Source of the DNA: an uncultured Methanosarcinales archaeon
GTDB lineage: Archaea > Nanobdellota > Nanobdellia > Woesearchaeales > WJKV01
DNA: 42,390 bases
Reading direction: 5' to 3'
Assembly (NCBI GenBank): GCA_964576505.1
Contig: CAZNVD010000004.1
Location: forward strand, 29,225-71,614
In this document: positions 2,325-42,198 of the stretch, piece by piece
How the letters are laid out: each line of letters opens with the position of its first letter
How positions within the stretch are numbered: the stretch's first letter is position 1
The notes under the pieces: model-generated
Seen by the model: the letters and a program-made list of their open reading frames with translations, nothing else
What the model was told of the DNA's origin: nothing
Database searches by the model: none
Position numbers and translations under genes: made by a program

Positions 2325-3518
2325 ATGAAATTTGCACATATCGCCGACTGCCATCTTGGAGGATGGAGAGAGGAAACGCTTCGCAATATGAGCCTTCACA
2401 TATTTGAGAGAGCTGTAAGCCGAGTGATTGCTGAGAAAGTTGATTTTGTGCTCTTTTGTGGGGATTTGTTTAATACTGCATTGCCGAGTCATGATAGTCT
2501 TCATGCAGCCATTAGTGGATTTGTGAAACTTCGCGATCATGGGATTCCGGTTTATTTAATTGCAGGAAGTCATGATTATAGCTCTTCAGGAAAAAGCTGG
2601 CTTGATCTTCTTGAGCCTACGAAAATATTTGTTAATGTTGCGAAAGTCAAAGAAGATAATGGTAAACTTAAAGTTGAGTTGACTCATGATCCTAAAACAG
2701 GGGTTGCATTAGCTGGAATGCTTGGGAAAAGAGGAGGGCTGGAAACTGAATACTATAAAATGCTTTCATATGATGGTGGGCATGATCGGGATAAGTCAAT
2801 ATTTTTGTTTCATTCGGCGCTTGAAGAATTGAAAGAGGAAGATATGCAGGCGATTGTGTCGCAGCCTCTTTCTTTGCTGCCTACAGGATTCTGGTATTAT
2901 GCAGGAGGACATGTTCATAGACGGCTTGTAAAAGATGTTGCATCGCACGGGCGGATTGTATATCCCGGGCCACTTTTTCCTAATAATTTCAAGGAGCTTG
3001 AAGAGACTACTGGTGGATTCTATATTGTTAATGATGGGGAAATGCAGTTTATTGAGAATAAAGAGGTAAAGGTTGTAAGTGTTAATGTGTCATGCGAAGG
3101 GAAGAAAGCGGAAGATGTCAGGGTGGAAGTTGAAACAAAGATAGAGAAAATTGATGTTGCTGGAAAGATTGTGCTTTTCAGAATGAGTGGACAACTTAGA
3201 GAGGGAAGTCTCAATGAAATACAGATACCTGAACTCATGAAAAAAATGTATGATTGCGGGGCGTTTCAAGTGCTGAGACATTCTGCTGGATTGCATGTAG
3301 TTGAGTTTCAAGAAGTTAAAGTTTCAGGGGAGACAGTAGGGGAGATTGAACAACATGTTATTGCTGAACATAAAGATCAGATCTCTGTTAATGGATTTAA
3401 GGAGACACAAGTGAATGATATGTTAAATAAACTTGGGATTGAAAAAATTGATGGAGAAACTGTAAAAGATTTTAATGATAGGGTGATAAAGGTAAGTGAA
3501 GAAATATTTGGGAAGTAA
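2325..3518 (+). CDS. mre11: Mre11/SbcD DNA double-strand break repair nuclease
   Basis: Metallophosphoesterase motifs ADCHLG, GDLF, GSHD, GGHVH and VYPGP; follows herA. Confidence 0.92.
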   Translation: MKFAHIADCHLGGWREETLRNMSLHIFERAVSRVIAEKVDFVLFCGDLFNTALPSHDSLHAAISGFVKLRDHGIPVYLIAGSHDYSSSGKSWLDLLEPTKIFVNVAKVKEDNGKLKVELTHDPKTGVALAGMLGKRGGLETEYYKMLSYDGGHDRDKSIFLFHSALEELKEEDMQAIVSQPLSLLPTGFWYYAGGHVHRRLVKDVASHGRIVYPGPLFPNNFKELEETTGGFYIVNDGEMQFIENKEVKVVSVNVSCEGKKAEDVRVEVETKIEKIDVAGKIVLFRMSGQLREGSLNEIQIPELMKKMYDCGAFQVLRHSAGLHVVEFQEVKVSGETVGEIEQHVIAEHKDQISVNGFKETQVNDMLNKLGIEKIDGETVKDFNDRVIKVSEEIFGK

Positions 3519-3545: not shown

Positions 3546-3687
3546 TGTTGACGGCACGACGCTCAATTGCGTAGCAATTGAGCTACTCGACACAAAAGAA
3601 AAGCTCTGCTTTTCTTTGTGCATAGAAAGCTAAAGGCTTTCTATTGCACCCCGTAGGGGGCATCCCCCCTCGAGTCGTGCGTCAACA
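3546..3687. repeat. Branched palindromic element, family A copy 1 (REP/BIME-like or structured ncRNA)
   Basis: Terminal arms TGTTGACG(G)CACGAC / GTCGTGCGTCAACA and four internal hairpins. The 22-mer ACCCCGTAGGGGGCATCCCCCC (3648-3669) is identical to 39970-39991. Confidence 0.8.
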
Positions 3688-37083: not shown

Positions 37084-39037
37084 GTACATCTGTTCCTAAG
37101 CCAAAGGCTTCTTTGTCTGTTACAGTTCCAGGCAGTAAATAATCTGGAGGACGGATTGCAGTTCCCATGTATGCGCGGTTGAGTTGGTTCCAGTAAACAG
37201 GACCAGAATCTGAGTGATAAATTGTTTTTCCTCCTTCTCCACCTTGTGACCAGGATTCTAAAAGTTGTCGTTCAGGACCTTCAAGCCATCCTTCTGATGT
37301 CATTGGGACATCAATTCCTTTTTCTCTTAGTGCTAATAATGCGTCTGAGATTAAATGCTGGCCCTGACCCATTGGAAGGTGGACGTGAGCCCGGCCCATG
37401 CCATCTACTATATGCAAGTTACCTATGTAGTCACCTTTTGCAGCTAAAGTATTGACCTGTTCTAAATACCATTTATCGAATTGATGCTTTCTTGCTCCTT
37501 CGTAGTCTCCTTGTTTGAGCAATTTCTTTTCATCGTCATCTAAATTCTCTTTGTCTAATACGAAATGTTTCTGCCACATTCCTAAATGCTGGAAGTCTAA
37601 GGTTGTTTTGATATGCTTTTTTGCGATTTCAAGAGCCTTCTTTTTTCCTTCTTCTCCCGCAAATGATTTATCGTAATATGGATTTCTTATTTTGCCTTCC
37701 TGAGCTCCAGTTGGATCTGGAATTTCTTTTTCACTCAAACGATCCACGAATGCCTGTCTTGCTTTATCTAGAATGTCCATGACATCTTCAACTTTGCCAC
37801 CATACATGTTTGCGGCTAAATTTTCTGCGGTGATTGTGAGAGGACGATCAAGTTTATGAGCCTGGGTTTGCTGCATTGCGTAAATGCCTAATTTTGCAAG
37901 ATTGTCTGCAGAACGGGTGAGAGCGACTTCTGAAATTGGGACGATGTTATCCATCGCTTCTTCTGTGTCCTTTTTTTTCTTGAGCTGGGCAGCGATTGCA
38001 AGATTTTCTGCGGCCATTCTATCCTGATACATTTTTCTTGCATTTTCCATTTTATTGAATGCTCTGTCAATTTCATCTTGATTTGGAGCTGGTTCCCTTG
38101 AGCGTACCCTTTCTGCAGTAATTTCTGCGGCAACATTGTCTTTTGTTTTATCTTTTAATTCGTTGTATCCACTTTTGTATTCATCCCTGCGGCCTATGTG
38201 TTGCTCAATTTCTGCATTAAGATCTTCAATACCGCTCTTAAAATAATCTTTAAAGAGAGCCCGGGCAATTATGTCGCCGGTCAAGGGTTTGTTTGCTTGC
38301 AGTTCTTCTTCAAAATATTTATTTTTGAATGCATCAGGGTTTCTATCAAATTCAGTCTTGTAATTGTACCAGGTAACTTCTTCAATTATTGGAATGCCGT
38401 TATCATCAAGCTTAATTTCGCCTTGATGTCCTTCATCATCCCTTCGAGCGACACGTTTTACTTTATAGTCCCGGGGAAGCTGCTGGACTTTACCTGATTT
38501 TTTGTCAGCGAAATATGCAGCCTGGCCGTATGCGGAACCTTCGTAATCTTCGAAACCTTTAATTTGATCTACAGGACGAGGAAATTCTCCAAGGTGGACG
38601 ACGACTGAGCCACCATGGGTAACATCGGCTGCAAAATCGATTGCAGATTTAATTTCATCTACTGTTCCAGCAGCTTGCTCTTCATTAAATTGTCCTTGTC
38701 TGGCGTCCCAACCTGAGAATCCAGTTAAATAAGAAGGGGCGTGAACAGACTGAATGTCAACTTCATTGACTTCAGCCATTCGTTTAATTTCATCTCTTAC
38801 TTCTTTACCGTGAGTTTCAGCACCACTGTCTGCAGCATTTCTTCCACCAAGCTGAATCTCCATGCTTTTGGCACCAAGCTTCATCTTCTGGTCCATGACC
38901 TGCTTGATTTTTCCTTCTATTTCTGCAACGCCTACACCAATATCCTTGCGAAACATCTTGTTTTTTTCAGTATGTCTCAGAGGACCCCAACTGTAATCCA
39001 TTGCAGTCGGGTAATCTCCCCACATTTGGTCTGCCAT
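37073..39037 (-). CDS. Xylose isomerase/AP endonuclease 2-like TIM-barrel protein with large helical insertion
   Basis: SVHAP, AIDFAADV..GGSVVVHLGE, ITAEN, TLDFQH, NLHIVD, HVHLPMGQG, TSEG. Confidence 0.75.
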   Translation of the reverse strand: MADQMWGDYPTAMDYSWGPLRHTEKNKMFRKDIGVGVAEIEGKIKQVMDQKMKLGAKSMEIQLGGRNAADSGAETHGKEVRDEIKRMAEVNEVDIQSVHAPSYLTGFSGWDARQGQFNEEQAAGTVDEIKSAIDFAADVTHGGSVVVHLGEFPRPVDQIKGFEDYEGSAYGQAAYFADKKSGKVQQLPRDYKVKRVARRDDEGHQGEIKLDDNGIPIIEEVTWYNYKTEFDRNPDAFKNKYFEEELQANKPLTGDIIARALFKDYFKSGIEDLNAEIEQHIGRRDEYKSGYNELKDKTKDNVAAEITAERVRSREPAPNQDEIDRAFNKMENARKMYQDRMAAENLAIAAQLKKKKDTEEAMDNIVPISEVALTRSADNLAKLGIYAMQQTQAHKLDRPLTITAENLAANMYGGKVEDVMDILDKARQAFVDRLSEKEIPDPTGAQEGKIRNPYYDKSFAGEEGKKKALEIAKKHIKTTLDFQHLGMWQKHFVLDKENLDDDEKKLLKQGDYEGARKHQFDKWYLEQVNTLAAKGDYIGNLHIVDGMGRAHVHLPMGQGQHLISDALLALREKGIDVPMTSEGWLEGPERQLLESWSQGGEGGKTIYHSDSGPVYWNQLNRAYMGTAIRPPDYLLPGTVTDKEAFGLGTDVPID

Positions 39038-39165
39038 TTTGGTTTTTGATAGTTGTTTGAATTTAGTAATTTGAGTTTTGGGTTATTTGTATTTAGTTTG
39101 AAGTATTTAGTTTGAATTTTTGTTTTTAGTTATTGGTGTTTAGTTATTAGTTTGAGTATTAGTTA
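39038..39165. repeat. Low-complexity degenerate short tandem repeats (TAGTTTGA/TATTTAG)
   Basis: About 130 nt with no C on the + strand; TATTTAGTTTGA occurs twice. Confidence 0.6.
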
Positions 39166-39840
39166 ATGAATTGTATAGTCTCTTTGCTCTTTATCTTTTT
39201 TTGCACTTAATTTATCTTTTGTTAAACTATCGTATAATTCCTCGCCTTTTGTTTTTGGTCTGGAATCATACTGATGCTGAGGAAGGTTTCCTTCCAGACC
39301 TTTGTTAGCATCATACTTGTTATCGGAATTTGATGGTTTAGCCAGGTAGTCTTGAGGCTTTTGATATAGTGAGCCGTTGTCATCCTGCTTTTTTTGATAT
39401 TGATCATAATTCGCTTTGAATTTATATAGATTATCGTTGCCTGGTTGAGGGGCTGCAATTTGAGCTGGAGCATCTTCCTTTTTTTCTGTTAATTGTTCTA
39501 CCAGATTTGTGATAGATTTGGAGTCATCAGATTCCTTTTCAGATTCATTCTTTTCAGGTTTACCATCTTTTTCTTCTTTTTTCTGCGACTGTAAAGGTTG
39601 CAATGATTGAATCATTTCTGCAAGCTTGCTGTCGTTTGGCACAGGAGTTTTTGCAGACGGACTGGTGAGAAGAACCTTAATTTTGCTTAAGGCTTCTTCC
39701 AGAATCTTAAGGTTAGCAAGATCTTTTTCGCTCCATACATCCCGCTTTTTTTCATGCTCAATCTTGGTTTCTAAAAGCGAGGCTAGCTTAGTTAAAGCCA
39801 AATTCTTAGTTTTTGGAGTTTTCTCCTCAAGTGAAGCCAT
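39163..39840 (-). CDS. Hypothetical hydrophilic low-complexity protein
   Basis: 225-aa ATG ORF, K/E/D/Q-rich, co-oriented with the TIM-barrel gene. Confidence 0.7.
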   Translation of the reverse strand: MASLEEKTPKTKNLALTKLASLLETKIEHEKKRDVWSEKDLANLKILEEALSKIKVLLTSPSAKTPVPNDSKLAEMIQSLQPLQSQKKEEKDGKPEKNESEKESDDSKSITNLVEQLTEKKEDAPAQIAAPQPGNDNLYKFKANYDQYQKKQDDNGSLYQKPQDYLAKPSNSDNKYDANKGLEGNLPQHQYDSRPKTKGEELYDSLTKDKLSAKKDKEQRDYTIH

Positions 39841-39912
39841 TTATAAATTTCAAGAATCTACTATTTAAATTGTTTATGCTGAAAATAGTGTACAAACAAA
39901 TCTAAAAATACA

Positions 39913-40017
39913 AATAGTAGCAGGGTTGCGGCATGACGGACATTTTGCGTGCAAAATGTCCTACGCGTGACCCCGTAGGGGGCATCCCCCCACGCGTCAT
40001 GCGCAACATATACTATT
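39913..40017. repeat. Branched palindromic element, family A copy 2
   Basis: GTTGCG(G)CATGAC / GTCATGCGCAAC arms, side hairpin GGACATTTTGC-gt-GCAAAATGTCC + TAC, same 22-mer apex as 3648-3669. Confidence 0.8.
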
Positions 40018-40077
40018 CTCGCCAGCCTCCACGATCACAAACATTTAAAAACAATTTGTGCCTTTCACGGGGTAGTT

Positions 40078-42198
40078 ATGGCGAAAAAAAAGGGGCAAGT
40101 GAGTGTTTATGTAGTCGTCGGATTATTACTTCTTATCGCAAGTATAATTCTTTTTACTGTCAGACGTGAGGGAGATGTTCCAACAGCTGAAGAAGAACTT
40201 CAAAGAGTGCCATCTCAATTCCATCCAATTTTTCTTTTTGTAGATGATTGTGTGCAAAGGGTAAGTCGTGAAGGATTAGAGCTTTTAGGAAGGCAGGCGG
40301 GTTATATTAGTGTTACAGATAAAGAATTGGCTGGCAGAGAATTCAAATTTGGGGGAGAACCAACTGAAAGTGATGGGGTAGTGCTTGGGGAAAATGTTGC
40401 GGTTCCGTACTGGCATATGCTTAAGAGCAGAAATACATGCAGAGAATGTAGTTTTGAACAGAGAGTGCCAACATCTGACCAAATTCGACAAGGATTGCAG
40501 ACATATATTCAAAAAGAACTTCCAGTATGCATAGATAATTTTAATCAATTCAAAACTCAAGGATATTCTTTTGAAGTTACAGGAGAGCCGAAGGCAACAG
40601 TACTTGTGCGGGCTGAAGATGTAGTGGTGAGAGTTGATTATTCATTTGATGCGACAATTGGTGAGGAGAAGTTTTCATTCCTGTCTTTCGGGGCTATGCA
40701 TGATGTCAGTCTATCAAGAGTTATTGATTTTGGTAAGCTTGTGCTTAAGCAGCAGGTTGATAATGCGTTCCTTGAATATAATACTATGAGCTTTGTTTCT
40801 GCATACGGAGCGGTTAAACAAGACAAATTGCCACCGATTGCTGCTGAGACAGTAGGGCCACAAAAGGTGTATTGGACGGTGCCACAGGTTAGAAATAGAA
40901 TTCAAGAGATACTTCTTACTTATATTCCTGCAATAAGTGTGATGGGAACTAATAATTTCTTTCCATTTGTTGTTGATGCGGATGCTGGACTTGGAGGACA
41001 GCTGAGGCAAGGAATGTATAATTCGCTTGTGTTTAATTTGGGGGAAGATAAATTAGTCAAATATGATGATTTGGATGTTTCATTTGCTTATCTTGACTGG
41101 CCTATTTACTTTGATATTACTCCAAGGGATGGTCAAATTGTGAGACCTGAGGAATTGCAGCAGAATTTCCCATCAGTGTTCAATCTTTTTGCCCAGTCAT
41201 ATAATTTCTATTATGATATTTCTTATCCTGTACTTGTCGAGATCAGACAGCAAGATGCATTTAATGGTGAAGGATATAGTTTCTGGTATGCGCTTGAATC
41301 TAATGTTAGAAATAATAAACCTTTGAAGACGAGTATTGATGAAATTGGTGAATTTAATCAAGGCGGTGCATCGTTATTTGGAAGTGAGGTGCAAAGAATA
41401 AGTGCGCCGGTAACTGCTACTGCTTATAATGATTTATTACAGCCGGTTTCTGAGGCTCATGTCTATTACGATTGCGGAGATGATTCTGCTTATATTGGCG
41501 AGACTGGTGCAGATGGAGTGCTGACTGCTCAATATCCTTTGTGCAGAGGTGGATTTGTTGTATTTTCAAAGGATGAATATGCTGGAGATAGAAAACCACT
41601 TGATACTACACAAAGTAAAGCTGAATCTGTTTATGGGGTGCTGAGGGAACTTCACAGGAAAAATGTGAGCCTATACATTAGAGATGAACTTACTTTGTCT
41701 CGGGTTAAAGCAGGACTTGAAAGTGAAGGCGGGCTTGCGAGCCAGACAAAACTCATTTCTGGAGAGGATAGCGCATATATTACGTTGAATCAAATTGGAC
41801 AGGATGGTCAGATTATTCATACGCAAGTGGCTGCTTTTGATGGGAATCAACCGATTGCTGAAATTTCGGTTGCACCGGGAGTATATGAAGTGTCTGGACA
41901 GTTTGTTTCTTCTGCGGGAATATATATTCCTGCAAGAAAAGTAACAGTTGGAAAACAAAGTGTTGAATTGCCAGAGATTGAAGTTAAGCCTGCGACACTA
42001 GGTGGAGTGGTGCTTTCAAGGCAAACTCAGATGTGGACAGCAGATAGAGTGTTTATTGAAGATCCTGCAAAGCAATTAGATATTTTCATGATTCGTGCGA
42101 CTCCTCCGAAGAGTCATGAGCAACTTGGGGCGGCGCTGGATAGTGCTCTTATATTGTCAAAGAATTATACTAAATACATTATACCTAGATGGAGATAA
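40078..42198 (+). CDS. Large surface protein with class III (pilin-like) signal peptide
   Basis: MAKKKGQ-VSVYVVVGLLLLIASIILF, FVDDC......GL..LG.QAGY. Confidence 0.8.
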   Translation: MAKKKGQVSVYVVVGLLLLIASIILFTVRREGDVPTAEEELQRVPSQFHPIFLFVDDCVQRVSREGLELLGRQAGYISVTDKELAGREFKFGGEPTESDGVVLGENVAVPYWHMLKSRNTCRECSFEQRVPTSDQIRQGLQTYIQKELPVCIDNFNQFKTQGYSFEVTGEPKATVLVRAEDVVVRVDYSFDATIGEEKFSFLSFGAMHDVSLSRVIDFGKLVLKQQVDNAFLEYNTMSFVSAYGAVKQDKLPPIAAETVGPQKVYWTVPQVRNRIQEILLTYIPAISVMGTNNFFPFVVDADAGLGGQLRQGMYNSLVFNLGEDKLVKYDDLDVSFAYLDWPIYFDITPRDGQIVRPEELQQNFPSVFNLFAQSYNFYYDISYPVLVEIRQQDAFNGEGYSFWYALESNVRNNKPLKTSIDEIGEFNQGGASLFGSEVQRISAPVTATAYNDLLQPVSEAHVYYDCGDDSAYIGETGADGVLTAQYPLCRGGFVVFSKDEYAGDRKPLDTTQSKAESVYGVLRELHRKNVSLYIRDELTLSRVKAGLESEGGLASQTKLISGEDSAYITLNQIGQDGQIIHTQVAAFDGNQPIAEISVAPGVYEVSGQFVSSAGIYIPARKVTVGKQSVELPEIEVKPATLGGVVLSRQTQMWTADRVFIEDPAKQLDIFMIRATPPKSHEQLGAALDSALILSKNYTKYIIPRWR

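Follow-up and report, generated by a model that had tools for sequence, protein, structure and literature searches.

The window examined here is a 42,390-nucleotide (nt) stretch of contig CAZNVD010000004.1 in assembly GCA_964576505.1, which was deposited as an uncultured Methanosarcinales archaeon and whose genome is that of a Woesearchaeota-type DPANN archaeon. In the spacer between two divergent open reading frames (ORFs; starts at 39840 on the minus strand and 40078 on the plus strand) lies the subject of this analysis, a short branched element (hereafter copy 2) that measures 83–105 bases, depending on whether the three-way junction is counted alone (39925-40007) or together with an outer 7-bp stem (39913-40017; Table 1). 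Its outer stem (P1) carries an extra-helical G and leads to a junction from which a side hairpin (P3) and an inner stem (P2) depart, and P2 is closed by an apex module in which a C-run, a three-base loop, a G-run, a linker, and a second C-run follow one another. A second member of the family (copy 1) sits in the same window between convergent ORFs that end at 3518 (plus strand) and 3701 (minus strand).

An earlier sequence-only reading of the window had described the stems, bulge, junction, and apex of copy 2, and every one of these features is present in the sequence. That reading had also placed the two copies about 36 kb apart with a shared 22-nt apex; the distance is ~36.3 kb, and the apex with its preceding A is identical over 22 nt between copies 1 and 2. 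The 21-nt apex core occurs twice in the window (3649 and 39971), against an expectation of 0.00 from 100 shuffles. Copy 2 also folds more stably than its composition predicts, with z-scores of -4.7 (plus strand) and -4.0 (minus strand) for RNA folding and -5.5 and -5.9, respectively, for DNA folding, and none of 200 shuffles equaled the native value on either strand in either calculation.

We lean, with confidence only a little above even, toward reading the element as a dispersed, gene-less, structure-defined single-stranded-DNA repeat of Woesearchaeales-type DPANN archaea. A DNA repeat is preferred to an RNA gene or a terminator because the family is scattered, its putatively triple-stranded tip co-varies, and its orientation in this genome follows strand composition.

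A Dispersed Family in Woesearchaeales-Type Genomes

A covariance model built from four copies recovered 15 full copies and one partial copy from the genome to which the window belongs (G000; 1.31 Mb in 81 contigs, 97% complete, with the window on contig C4). A generic search of the whole genome for a C-run, a G-run, and a further C- or G-run gave 18 matches, all of which carry the same apex. Four of these belong to a second palindromic scaffold that the model had missed, and together with two found earlier they make up six "family B" copies, so that the genome holds 21 apex-bearing elements (15 full copies and six of family B). The family B scaffold is ~110–180 nt long, bears the twin AT-rich hairpins described below in one instance, and has outer stems of its own that co-vary between copies. 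The genes beside the copies are housekeeping genes, among them those for eIF-6, an aRF1/Pelota-like protein, ArgRS, AspRS, GatB/E, TFS, Nre, and dUTPase.

Beyond this genome, the model matched 22 of 100 relatives, each belonging to the same order and containing 1 to 23 matches (23 of 101 genomes when the window's own is counted), and none of the seven genomes of the same family, three of which (G001, G002, and G006) are flagged as unpublished. An even sample of the phylum gave matches in 17 of 151 genomes, the window's own included, and again all positives fell in the same order. The conserved core is thus found outside its own genome in 22 relatives and 16 genomes of the phylum sample, counted as 38 with five genomes present in both samples, and copy numbers range from 0 to ~25 per genome. 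A scan of public genomes, one per species, with a degenerate apex pattern returned at least 122 stretches, of which 80 loci were fetched. Among the matches listed, 53 were confirmed by the model, and these came only from Woesearchaeota, Nanoarchaeota, unclassified archaeal metagenome-assembled genomes (MAGs), and six MAGs labeled Methanosarcinales; of the matches in Streptomyces and other bacteria, none was confirmed among the 80 loci fetched from the at least 122. The model-confirmed copies in the six "uncultured Methanosarcinales" MAGs (L063, L083, L085, L098, L123, and L124) lie on short to medium contigs, which could be mis-binned DPANN contigs or could reflect transfer between symbiont and host lineages.

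No Rfam 15 family reached its gathering score anywhere in the window. Searched to an E-value of 10, the surroundings of both copies gave best sub-threshold E-values of 0.38–2.4, far below gathering, and six paired copies from relatives gave just two matches to miRNA families, likewise far below gathering. A search of full-text literature found no description of the element.

A Covarying Fold With a Putative Three-Stranded Apex

The sequence-only reading had proposed that copies 1 and 2 share one fold under different stem sequences. To extend the comparison, 60 further copies were fetched, and 112 matches (111 distinct) were aligned to the model; base counts given below refer to 106 copies from 24 genomes, with rows L019-L023 left out for long inserts or truncation. 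The structural alignment bears the proposal out: in the 111 distinct copies 90.4% of cells pair under the adopted structure, 29 of 32 pairs show two-sided changes (including 10 of 10 in P3 and five of five in P2), and none of 500 shuffles reached the observed covariation score. The alignment was fitted to its own model and so favors the adopted structure; however, when partners are slid by 1–3 columns, pairing falls to 36–42%, and on the strength of these slid controls and the abundant double changes the three main helices can be regarded as safe.

The bulge and the junction are conserved. The bulged G, which had been noted at the same place in both copies of the window, recurs in 91 of 106 distinct copies, and the TAC junction generalizes to a T at the first base in 106 of 106 (TAC 66, TAT 20, TGC 16, other 4). 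The GAC that precedes the junction is kept in 102–105 of 106 copies, and in P3 the GG/CC pairs beside the junction are conserved while the remaining stem varies.

Within the apex, energy folding predicts an antiparallel hairpin of the G-run with the second C-run, and this prediction is not supported. Two of its five pairs show a single double-change cell and three show none, the variants are mostly unpaired under it, and, worked through by hand on the variant sequences, no register of the antiparallel G-run and second C-run fits both variants. It is instead the first C-run and the G-run, folded around a G-N-A loop (G in 103 and A in 94 of 106 copies), that co-vary, one pair appearing as CG 82, GC 11, UA 9, and UG 4 and the next as CG 99 and UA 9. 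These pairs in turn show covariation with the second C-run, in parallel register. In the lowest layer of the three runs, 74 of the 106 copies read C,G,C, nine T,A,T, nine G,C,A, and 14 something else; in the next, 92 read C,G,C, nine T,A,T, and five something else. Every T-A pair is thus accompanied by a T as third base (9 of 9 at each of the two layers), and each triple variant occurs in five or six genomes from different families. C-G+C and T-A+T are isosteric base triples of a triple helix, and the apex therefore fits a hairpin with a third strand, that is, a putative triple helix, instead of the predicted hairpin. Support for the triples in the aligned copies is good rather than overwhelming. 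The conserved unit would be a stem closed by a three-stranded cap, made of the C-run/G-run hairpin and a mirror-image third run, which in this element is set on a three-way junction bearing a bulged G.

Compensatory changes had also been taken by the sequence-only reading to indicate selection on a single-stranded structure. The changes are real, yet changes in the stems alone are no proof of such selection, and G-T pairs are rare, which would be expected of DNA palindromes kept complementary; the three-way covariation at the apex is a stronger argument for a single-strand structure than the stem changes are.

Table 1. Positions of the element, its parts, and related copies (window coordinates unless a contig is named).
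Feature	Position	Strand	Remarks
Outer extension stem, 5' arm	39913..39919	+	7 bp with 40011-40017, small internal loop; flanking inverted repeat of ≥6 bp
Outer stem P1, 5' arm	39925..39937	+	Extra-helical G at 39931; invariant GAC at 39935-39937; covariation
Side hairpin P3	39938..39961	+	10 bp, 39938-39947 with 39952-39961; 4-nt loop 39948-39951
Unpaired junction TAC	39962..39964	+	First base T in all copies counted
Inner stem P2, 5' arm	39965..39969	+	Pairs with 39991-39995
Apex module	39970..39990	+	A, C-run 39971-39974, loop GTA 39975-39977, G-run 39978-39982
Apex module, 3' part	39983..39990	+	Linker CAT 39983-39985, second C-run 39986-39990
Inner stem P2, 3' arm	39991..39995	+	Covariation
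Outer stem P1, 3' arm	39996..40007	+	12-bp stem with 39925-39937; covariation
Outer extension stem, 3' arm	40011..40017	+	Pairs with 39913-39919
Copy 1, same family and orientation	3547..3686	+	Apex match, covariance model
Twin AT-rich hairpin module	3591..3646	+	Insertion within copy 1, immediately 5' of the apex
Family B copies	G000:C8:17230-17335, C36:5650-5830, C7:26196, C10:31252, C19:10564, C23:3993	n/a	Same apex

Single-Stranded DNA or RNA

Covariation is mirror-symmetric between the strands, and the nature of the folding strand has to be judged from the triples and from the exceptions to pairing. On the strand described above (the described strand), the apex could form a pyrimidine-motif triplex with the third strand parallel to the G-run, as RNA or as DNA. 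On the complementary strand the triplex would be of the purine motif, its layers being G.G-C and A.A-T and its third strand antiparallel to the purine strand of the duplex. According to the introduction of PMC4666352, pyrimidine-type triplexes occur in RNA, whereas the purine-motif triplex forms in DNA and cannot form in RNA.

With the three outermost pairs excluded, 2577 of 2842 cells are Watson-Crick pairs. On the described strand the exceptions are A-C (82), G-T (21), pyrimidine-pyrimidine (145), and purine-purine (17) cells, whereas on the complementary strand they become mostly G-T and purine-purine (G-A type) combinations, which helices tolerate. This one-sidedness suggests that the complementary strand folds better. 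The mismatches cluster at constant sites near the junction, namely the final two pairs of P1, the first two of P2, and the third pair of P3. The fold that the sequence-only reading had drawn on the described strand is therefore present there, but the non-Watson-Crick positions favor the opposite strand. The loop can be argued either way: on the described strand G-N-A corresponds to the classic, highly stable DNA triloop, and on the complementary strand it would become a U-N-C-G tetraloop, which we count in favor of an RNA.

The main competitor to the single-stranded-DNA reading, one that we regard as distinctly improbable and yet the best of the alternatives, is a structured module at the RNA level: a small RNA, or else part of a 3' untranslated region that shields transcripts or aids termination, working in either orientation and forming a C+.G-C and U.A-U triplex on the described strand. 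Such a module would account for the strong covariation in all helices, and its triplex would be of the pyrimidine type that the introduction of PMC4666352 places in RNA. The spacing of the copies also agrees with it, since in 10 of 12 gaps they lie 13–53 nt after a stop codon and in 11 of 14 gaps 52–83 nt before a start, whatever their own sense, and in some relatives a long hairpin is framed by A-runs and T-runs in the manner of a two-way terminator. Against it stands the mixed orientation of the copies to genes: between tandem gene pairs two copies are sense and five antisense, and of the others three are convergent, two follow tRNA genes, and three lie between divergent starts. The flanks have no conserved position, and thus give no sign of a promoter of the element's own, and no T-run follows the copies of this genome. 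The mixed orientation and the missing T-run also uphold the earlier statement that the element is not a plain terminator. G-T (G-U) pairs make up ~1.4% of cells, a share that is small for a structured RNA and usual among DNA palindromes kept complementary; no Rfam family matches; and, as set out in the next section, all 21 copies follow strand composition, which tRNA genes do not. Finally, the two strand readings conflict for an RNA, because the described strand would carry the bad mismatches and the complementary strand would require a triplex type that, in the introduction of PMC4666352, is not available to RNA. The DNA reading is free of this strand conflict. The active form would accordingly be single-stranded DNA in our preferred reading, and either strand may be the one that folds.

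Orientation and Strand Polarity

The genome has a contig-wide GC skew of |0.1-0.2| on most contigs longer than 20 kb, with an opposite AT skew, and the GC skew is scarcely correlated with the share of coding sequence on a strand (r = 0.10). A contig-wide skew of this strength (e.g., on C1-C24) is notable for a DPANN archaeon and could be useful for replication mapping in its own right. In all 21 apex-bearing elements (the 17 examined at first and four further family B copies), the described strand is the G-rich strand, while tRNA genes divide 12 versus 10 with respect to the skew.

G091, the other strongly skewed genome, shows a related arrangement. Inverted pairs, formed by abutting copies of two different subfamilies, are present in several genomes, always "+ then -" as listed, and in five of five such pairs in G091 the G-rich strand carries the TGC member in sense. 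One single copy of this "TGC" (long-stem) subfamily is oriented as in the window's genome, the short-stem subfamily, which has a 2-bp stem segment, has five single copies that all point the opposite way, and four more copies, three borne by an insertion sequence (IS) and one other, either are mixed in orientation or sit in weak local skew. For calling polarity, windows of up to 3 kb were too noisy (17 positive versus 23 negative). Strand polarity is thus real in two genomes, subfamily-specific, and not universal as far as shown, and it would link the element to replication.

A polarity of this kind would also be expected of a host DNA signal for replication or segregation, such as a fork-pausing, priming, or orienting site comparable to Ter, Chi, or KOPS. 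We think this unlikely. The orientation of all 21 copies here and of five of five inverted pairs in G091 is consistent with it, as is the failure to find a transposase in the genome. However, an essential signal should be vertically conserved, and 78 of 100 same-order relatives and seven of seven same-family genomes are without the element. Copy numbers that range from 0 to ~25, copies inside an IS, nested or paired arrangements, and the opposed orientation of two subfamilies in G091 speak against it as well.

Insertion, Possible Mobility, and the Search for an Enzyme

Copy 1 lies between convergent genes for gatE and an Mre11-like phosphoesterase, which in this genome are separated by a stop-to-stop gap of 182 nt and in relatives by 9 (G006), 15 (G002), 10 (G003), 2 (G023), and 6 nt (G028). 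G006 and G002 are unpublished, and the conclusion holds on G003, G023, and G028 alone; G004 was left out of the comparison. Copy 1 is an insertion relative to the related genomes. The comparison is confined to this site, as the left-hand gene of copy 2 has no homologue at an E-value of 1e-10 or better in the seven same-family genomes. In G004, the gatE homologue itself (L243; G004:C95:3210-4553) contains one in-frame TGA.

Perfect inverted repeats of at least 6 bp flank 72 of 104 copies, with ~11 expected from partner-shuffled flanks, and 44 of these 72 show an offset of 3–4 nt at the 5' flank and of 0 at the 3' flank. The outer stems reappear in different copies and genomes. Another copy in this genome (G000:C18:5528-5661) has 97.8% identity with copy 1 over 134 nt, as would follow from recent copying, and the outermost base pairs differ between the two, yet they are complementary within each copy. 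Insertion into pre-existing terminator hairpins was considered as a source of the outer stems and rejected: in the subfamily tested, the outer A-run/T-run stem was never found empty in four genomes (G088, G078, G083, and G076), and it therefore belongs to the repeat.

Copies 1 and 2 differ by twin AT-rich hairpins, which the sequence-only reading had explained as a modular loss from copy 2. A gain in copy 1 is more likely, because the twin hairpins occur in only six elements and at two positions, and most members of the family are without them. All six occurrences in the genome lie inside an element, either before the apex or within the outer stem after the bulged G (as at G000:C2:41060-41118, in the copy at C2:41119), and CAC follows immediately 3' each time. 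These hairpins were inserted separately from the rest of the element and look like a small insertion module of their own with a CAC target.

In G091, three identical copies at contig ends belong to an IS with a DDE_Tnp_1 transposase gene and are set 51 nt inward from the IS end; their position at contig ends arises because the DDE-type IS carries the copy inside it and breaks the assembly. The IS-borne copy is a passenger and not an IS terminus. One such IS is seen at L275:12650-13855 (G091:C60), where a 316-aa DDE_Tnp_1 transposase and a complete copy of the element stand together. On the whole, the element may well be mobile at present.

Several candidate partners were compared between carriers and non-carriers of the element. 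A Y1 transposase is enriched among relatives that carry it (12 of 22, against 20 of 78 non-carriers) but is absent from the window's genome, and Y1_Tnp (PF01797) is also absent from the high-copy carriers G011, G015, G058, and G083. DUF559 (PF04480) occurs in five of 23 carriers and five of 78 non-carriers, with no element copy within ~1.5 kb of eight such loci, and was likewise rejected. In the window's genome a 137-aa ORF with a weak DUF559 match (L303:321-734; on the 3.1-kb contig G000:C63) lies beside a 425-aa ORF, with no copy nearby. [quoted passage not shown]

The genome encodes two tyrosine recombinases. The second (G000:C25:4084-5124; L318:1144-2187; 347 aa) has its sole close homologue among the 100 relatives (43% identity) in the distant and element-rich G091, which suggests a shared mobile element or virus. 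As a partner it was rejected, with homologues in six of 23 carriers and eight of 78 non-carriers, mostly at <30% identity. The same counts bear on the possibility that the element is an integron-type attC or similar folded-strand site of a tyrosine recombinase, left singly in the chromosome, which we consider very improbable even though the imperfect palindrome, the conserved extra-helical G, the variable branched tip, the conserved fold over variable sequence, and the recombinase shared with G091 would all suit it. The attC R-box consensus is not kept: relatives begin with different bases, and GTT/AAC, where present, stands at the outermost and not the inner position; moreover, there is no unpaired central spacer, and the copies lie >10 kb apart among housekeeping genes, with no cassette arrays. 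A reading as a common terminator hairpin or as a palindrome arisen by chance, for which an intergenic GC-rich stretch in an AT-rich genome and the A-runs and T-runs beside some relatives' copies could be cited, deserves almost no credence given a conserved core with invariant unpaired bases in other genomes, a copy 2 placed between two gene starts with no T-run (T-runs being found only in some subfamilies of relatives), an apex expectation of 0.00, and three apex positions that co-vary. The attC-like, terminator, and unforeseen readings together take a small part of the total probability.

Comparison With Known Repeats

The element is best viewed as an archaeal, branched member of the triplex-motif/REP kind of repeat, and the closest known repeats are the BoxC/PIT/TM triplex repeats and the repetitive extragenic palindromic (REP) elements. 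REP elements and the bacterial interspersed mosaic elements (BIMEs) built from them are palindromes outside genes, found either alone or in inverted pairs, and their irregular hairpins are recognized as single-stranded DNA. The insertion of the IS200/IS605 family is tied to the lagging-strand template, which leads to an orientation bias. The element is likewise extragenic and palindromic, and stands singly or in inverted pairs. Unlike REP elements with their REP-associated tyrosine transposase (RAYT), it has no Y1 (RAYT) gene in its genome, and compared with REP and IS200/IS605 elements it is longer (80–140 nt) and branched, with a putative triplex cap and no conserved GTAG-type head. As miniatures of IS200/IS605, the copies would need TnpA (Y1)/TnpB, which the genome lacks; the orientation bias agrees (21 of 21) and is not uniform elsewhere.

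The attC sites of integrons combine a conserved fold under variable sequence with extra-helical bases, sometimes a branched tip, and strand-specific use. The element shares the conserved fold over variable sequence and the variable, branched tip, would share the strand-specific use, and has extra-helical bases (the bulged G of 91 of 106 copies) as a resemblance only. It is without an R-box/L-box consensus, cassette arrays, or an integron integrase beside its copies. Readings as a K-turn, H/ACA, hammerhead, twister, or HDV-like RNA found no support in the conserved bases or in Rfam.

Bacterial repeats of the BoxC/PIT/TM_ECO group, as they are presented in the portions of PMC4666352 drawn on here, form intrastrand triplexes, TM_ECO being 37 nt long with blocks in the order pyrimidine-purine-purine and showing no strand bias in Escherichia coli. 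As far as that account goes, these repeats share with the element a short, multi-copy, strictly intergenic character, three consecutive G- or C-rich blocks, the lack of an associated transposase and of any simple tie to the orientation of neighboring genes, and, on the complementary strand of the element, G.G-C chemistry. The differences, within the same compass, are several. The TM_ECO consensus (PMC4666352) is not matched, since 18 of the 18 generic three-block matches in the window's genome read C-run, G-run, C-run, an order of pyrimidine-purine-pyrimidine (purine-pyrimidine-purine on the other strand). The third strand of TM_ECO folds back simply, whereas the third run of the element would cross the helix by a linker of 3–5 nt. 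The element is also set apart by its archaeal host, by a cap that is seated on either the three-way junction or the family B scaffold, and by its polar orientation. It may be able to form a triple helix within one strand, and three-way covariation is seen in a triple-compatible register.

The G-quadruplex/C-track repeats of Methanomicrobiaceae, to judge from the excerpts of PMC8044849, resemble the element in being archaeal, intergenic, and multi-copy, and differ from it in their methanogen hosts, in block order and sequence, and in their G-quadruplex potential; those excerpts report neither a three-way junction nor a strand polarity. In both groups of repeats the purine third strand is described as folding back directly (PMC4666352 and PMC8044849, in the passages available). 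Finally, Ssn nucleases provide a precedent for a host enzyme that reads multi-copy repeats (NTS/SRM) only in single-stranded DNA, according to the parts of PMC11893778 at hand; compared with what is described there, the window's genome has no GIY-YIG match, and the repeat sequence and fold are different.

Weighing the Single-Stranded-DNA Reading

In the mechanism that we propose, the element would act as folded single-stranded DNA and not as RNA, an enzyme partner would copy it into intergenic spacers, and its insertion or survival would depend on the strand that it occupies at the replication fork.

Several observations weigh against this proposal. First, no likely enzyme has turned up in the 97% complete genome, which contains no match to Y1_Tnp (PF01797), TnpB (PF07282), DDE_Tnp_1 (PF01609), or GIY-YIG and no multi-copy IS. 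Second, the relatives with empty sites are only 53–59% identical in GatE, so that the insertion ends are not readable. Contigs from three of four DNA runs across 38500-41500 bridge the filled site and contain no joints and no empty form, the loose contig ends in that interval deriving from other copies, and metagenome scans for empty copy 1 and copy 2 sites gave 0 matches each. Third, the polarity has limits: the rule in G091 was read from single copies and afterwards met by the five pairs, two subfamilies point opposite ways in that genome, G076 with its weak skew divides 10 versus 6, G192 has no usable skew, and isolated copies in G083, G049, and G084 fit no single rule. That the G-rich strand is the lagging-strand template would be an extension by analogy from organisms with mapped origins. 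Finally, the fold is at present a prediction from sequence, and the triples raise difficulties of their own. The three triple variants may be just three evolutionary events inherited by subfamilies, the counts being of sequences and not of events; the four C+.G-C layers of the described strand would require protonated cytosines; on either strand the third run needs a 3–5-nt linker that spans the whole helix; and the conserved G-N-A loop suits the described strand while the mismatches suit the other.

A more far-reaching version of the single-stranded-DNA reading is offered tentatively, as something we would not yet expect to prove right. The family might represent an archaeal class of mobile element, a folded single strand with a triplex-capped three-way junction, inserted or maintained in step with the replication fork by an enzyme outside the known transposases. 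This would explain why every copy of the burst in this genome lies on the same replication strand. If true, this would be the first natural repeat family with a DNA triple helix supported by evolutionary covariation.

To our knowledge, ~30 years after triplex-type repeats of the BoxC/PIT kind became known they have been assigned neither a function nor a partner enzyme. The cellular relevance of a triple helix in a repeat has rested on test-tube work, and third-strand covariation in an isosteric series would supply an evolutionary test of triplex repeats in place of a chemical one. Perfect polarity in a strongly skewed genome that lacks the four enzyme families searched may tie such repeats to replication and make the connection approachable by experiment. 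In addition, programs that find RNA genes by structure would wrongly take a recurrent, strongly folded, covarying DPANN element of this kind to be a small RNA gene.

Other Repeats in the Genome

Apart from the element, the genome contains other scattered pairs and triplets of 120–130 nt that may be further small repeat families. They are 81–88% identical and comprise a pair at G000:C13:11115-11247 and C22:9503-9630, a triplet at C17:20774-20899, C38:4229-4356, and C6:5950-6069, and further pairs at G000:C7:1584-1712 and C14:22038-22164 and at C1:54881-55000 and C5:23444-23563.

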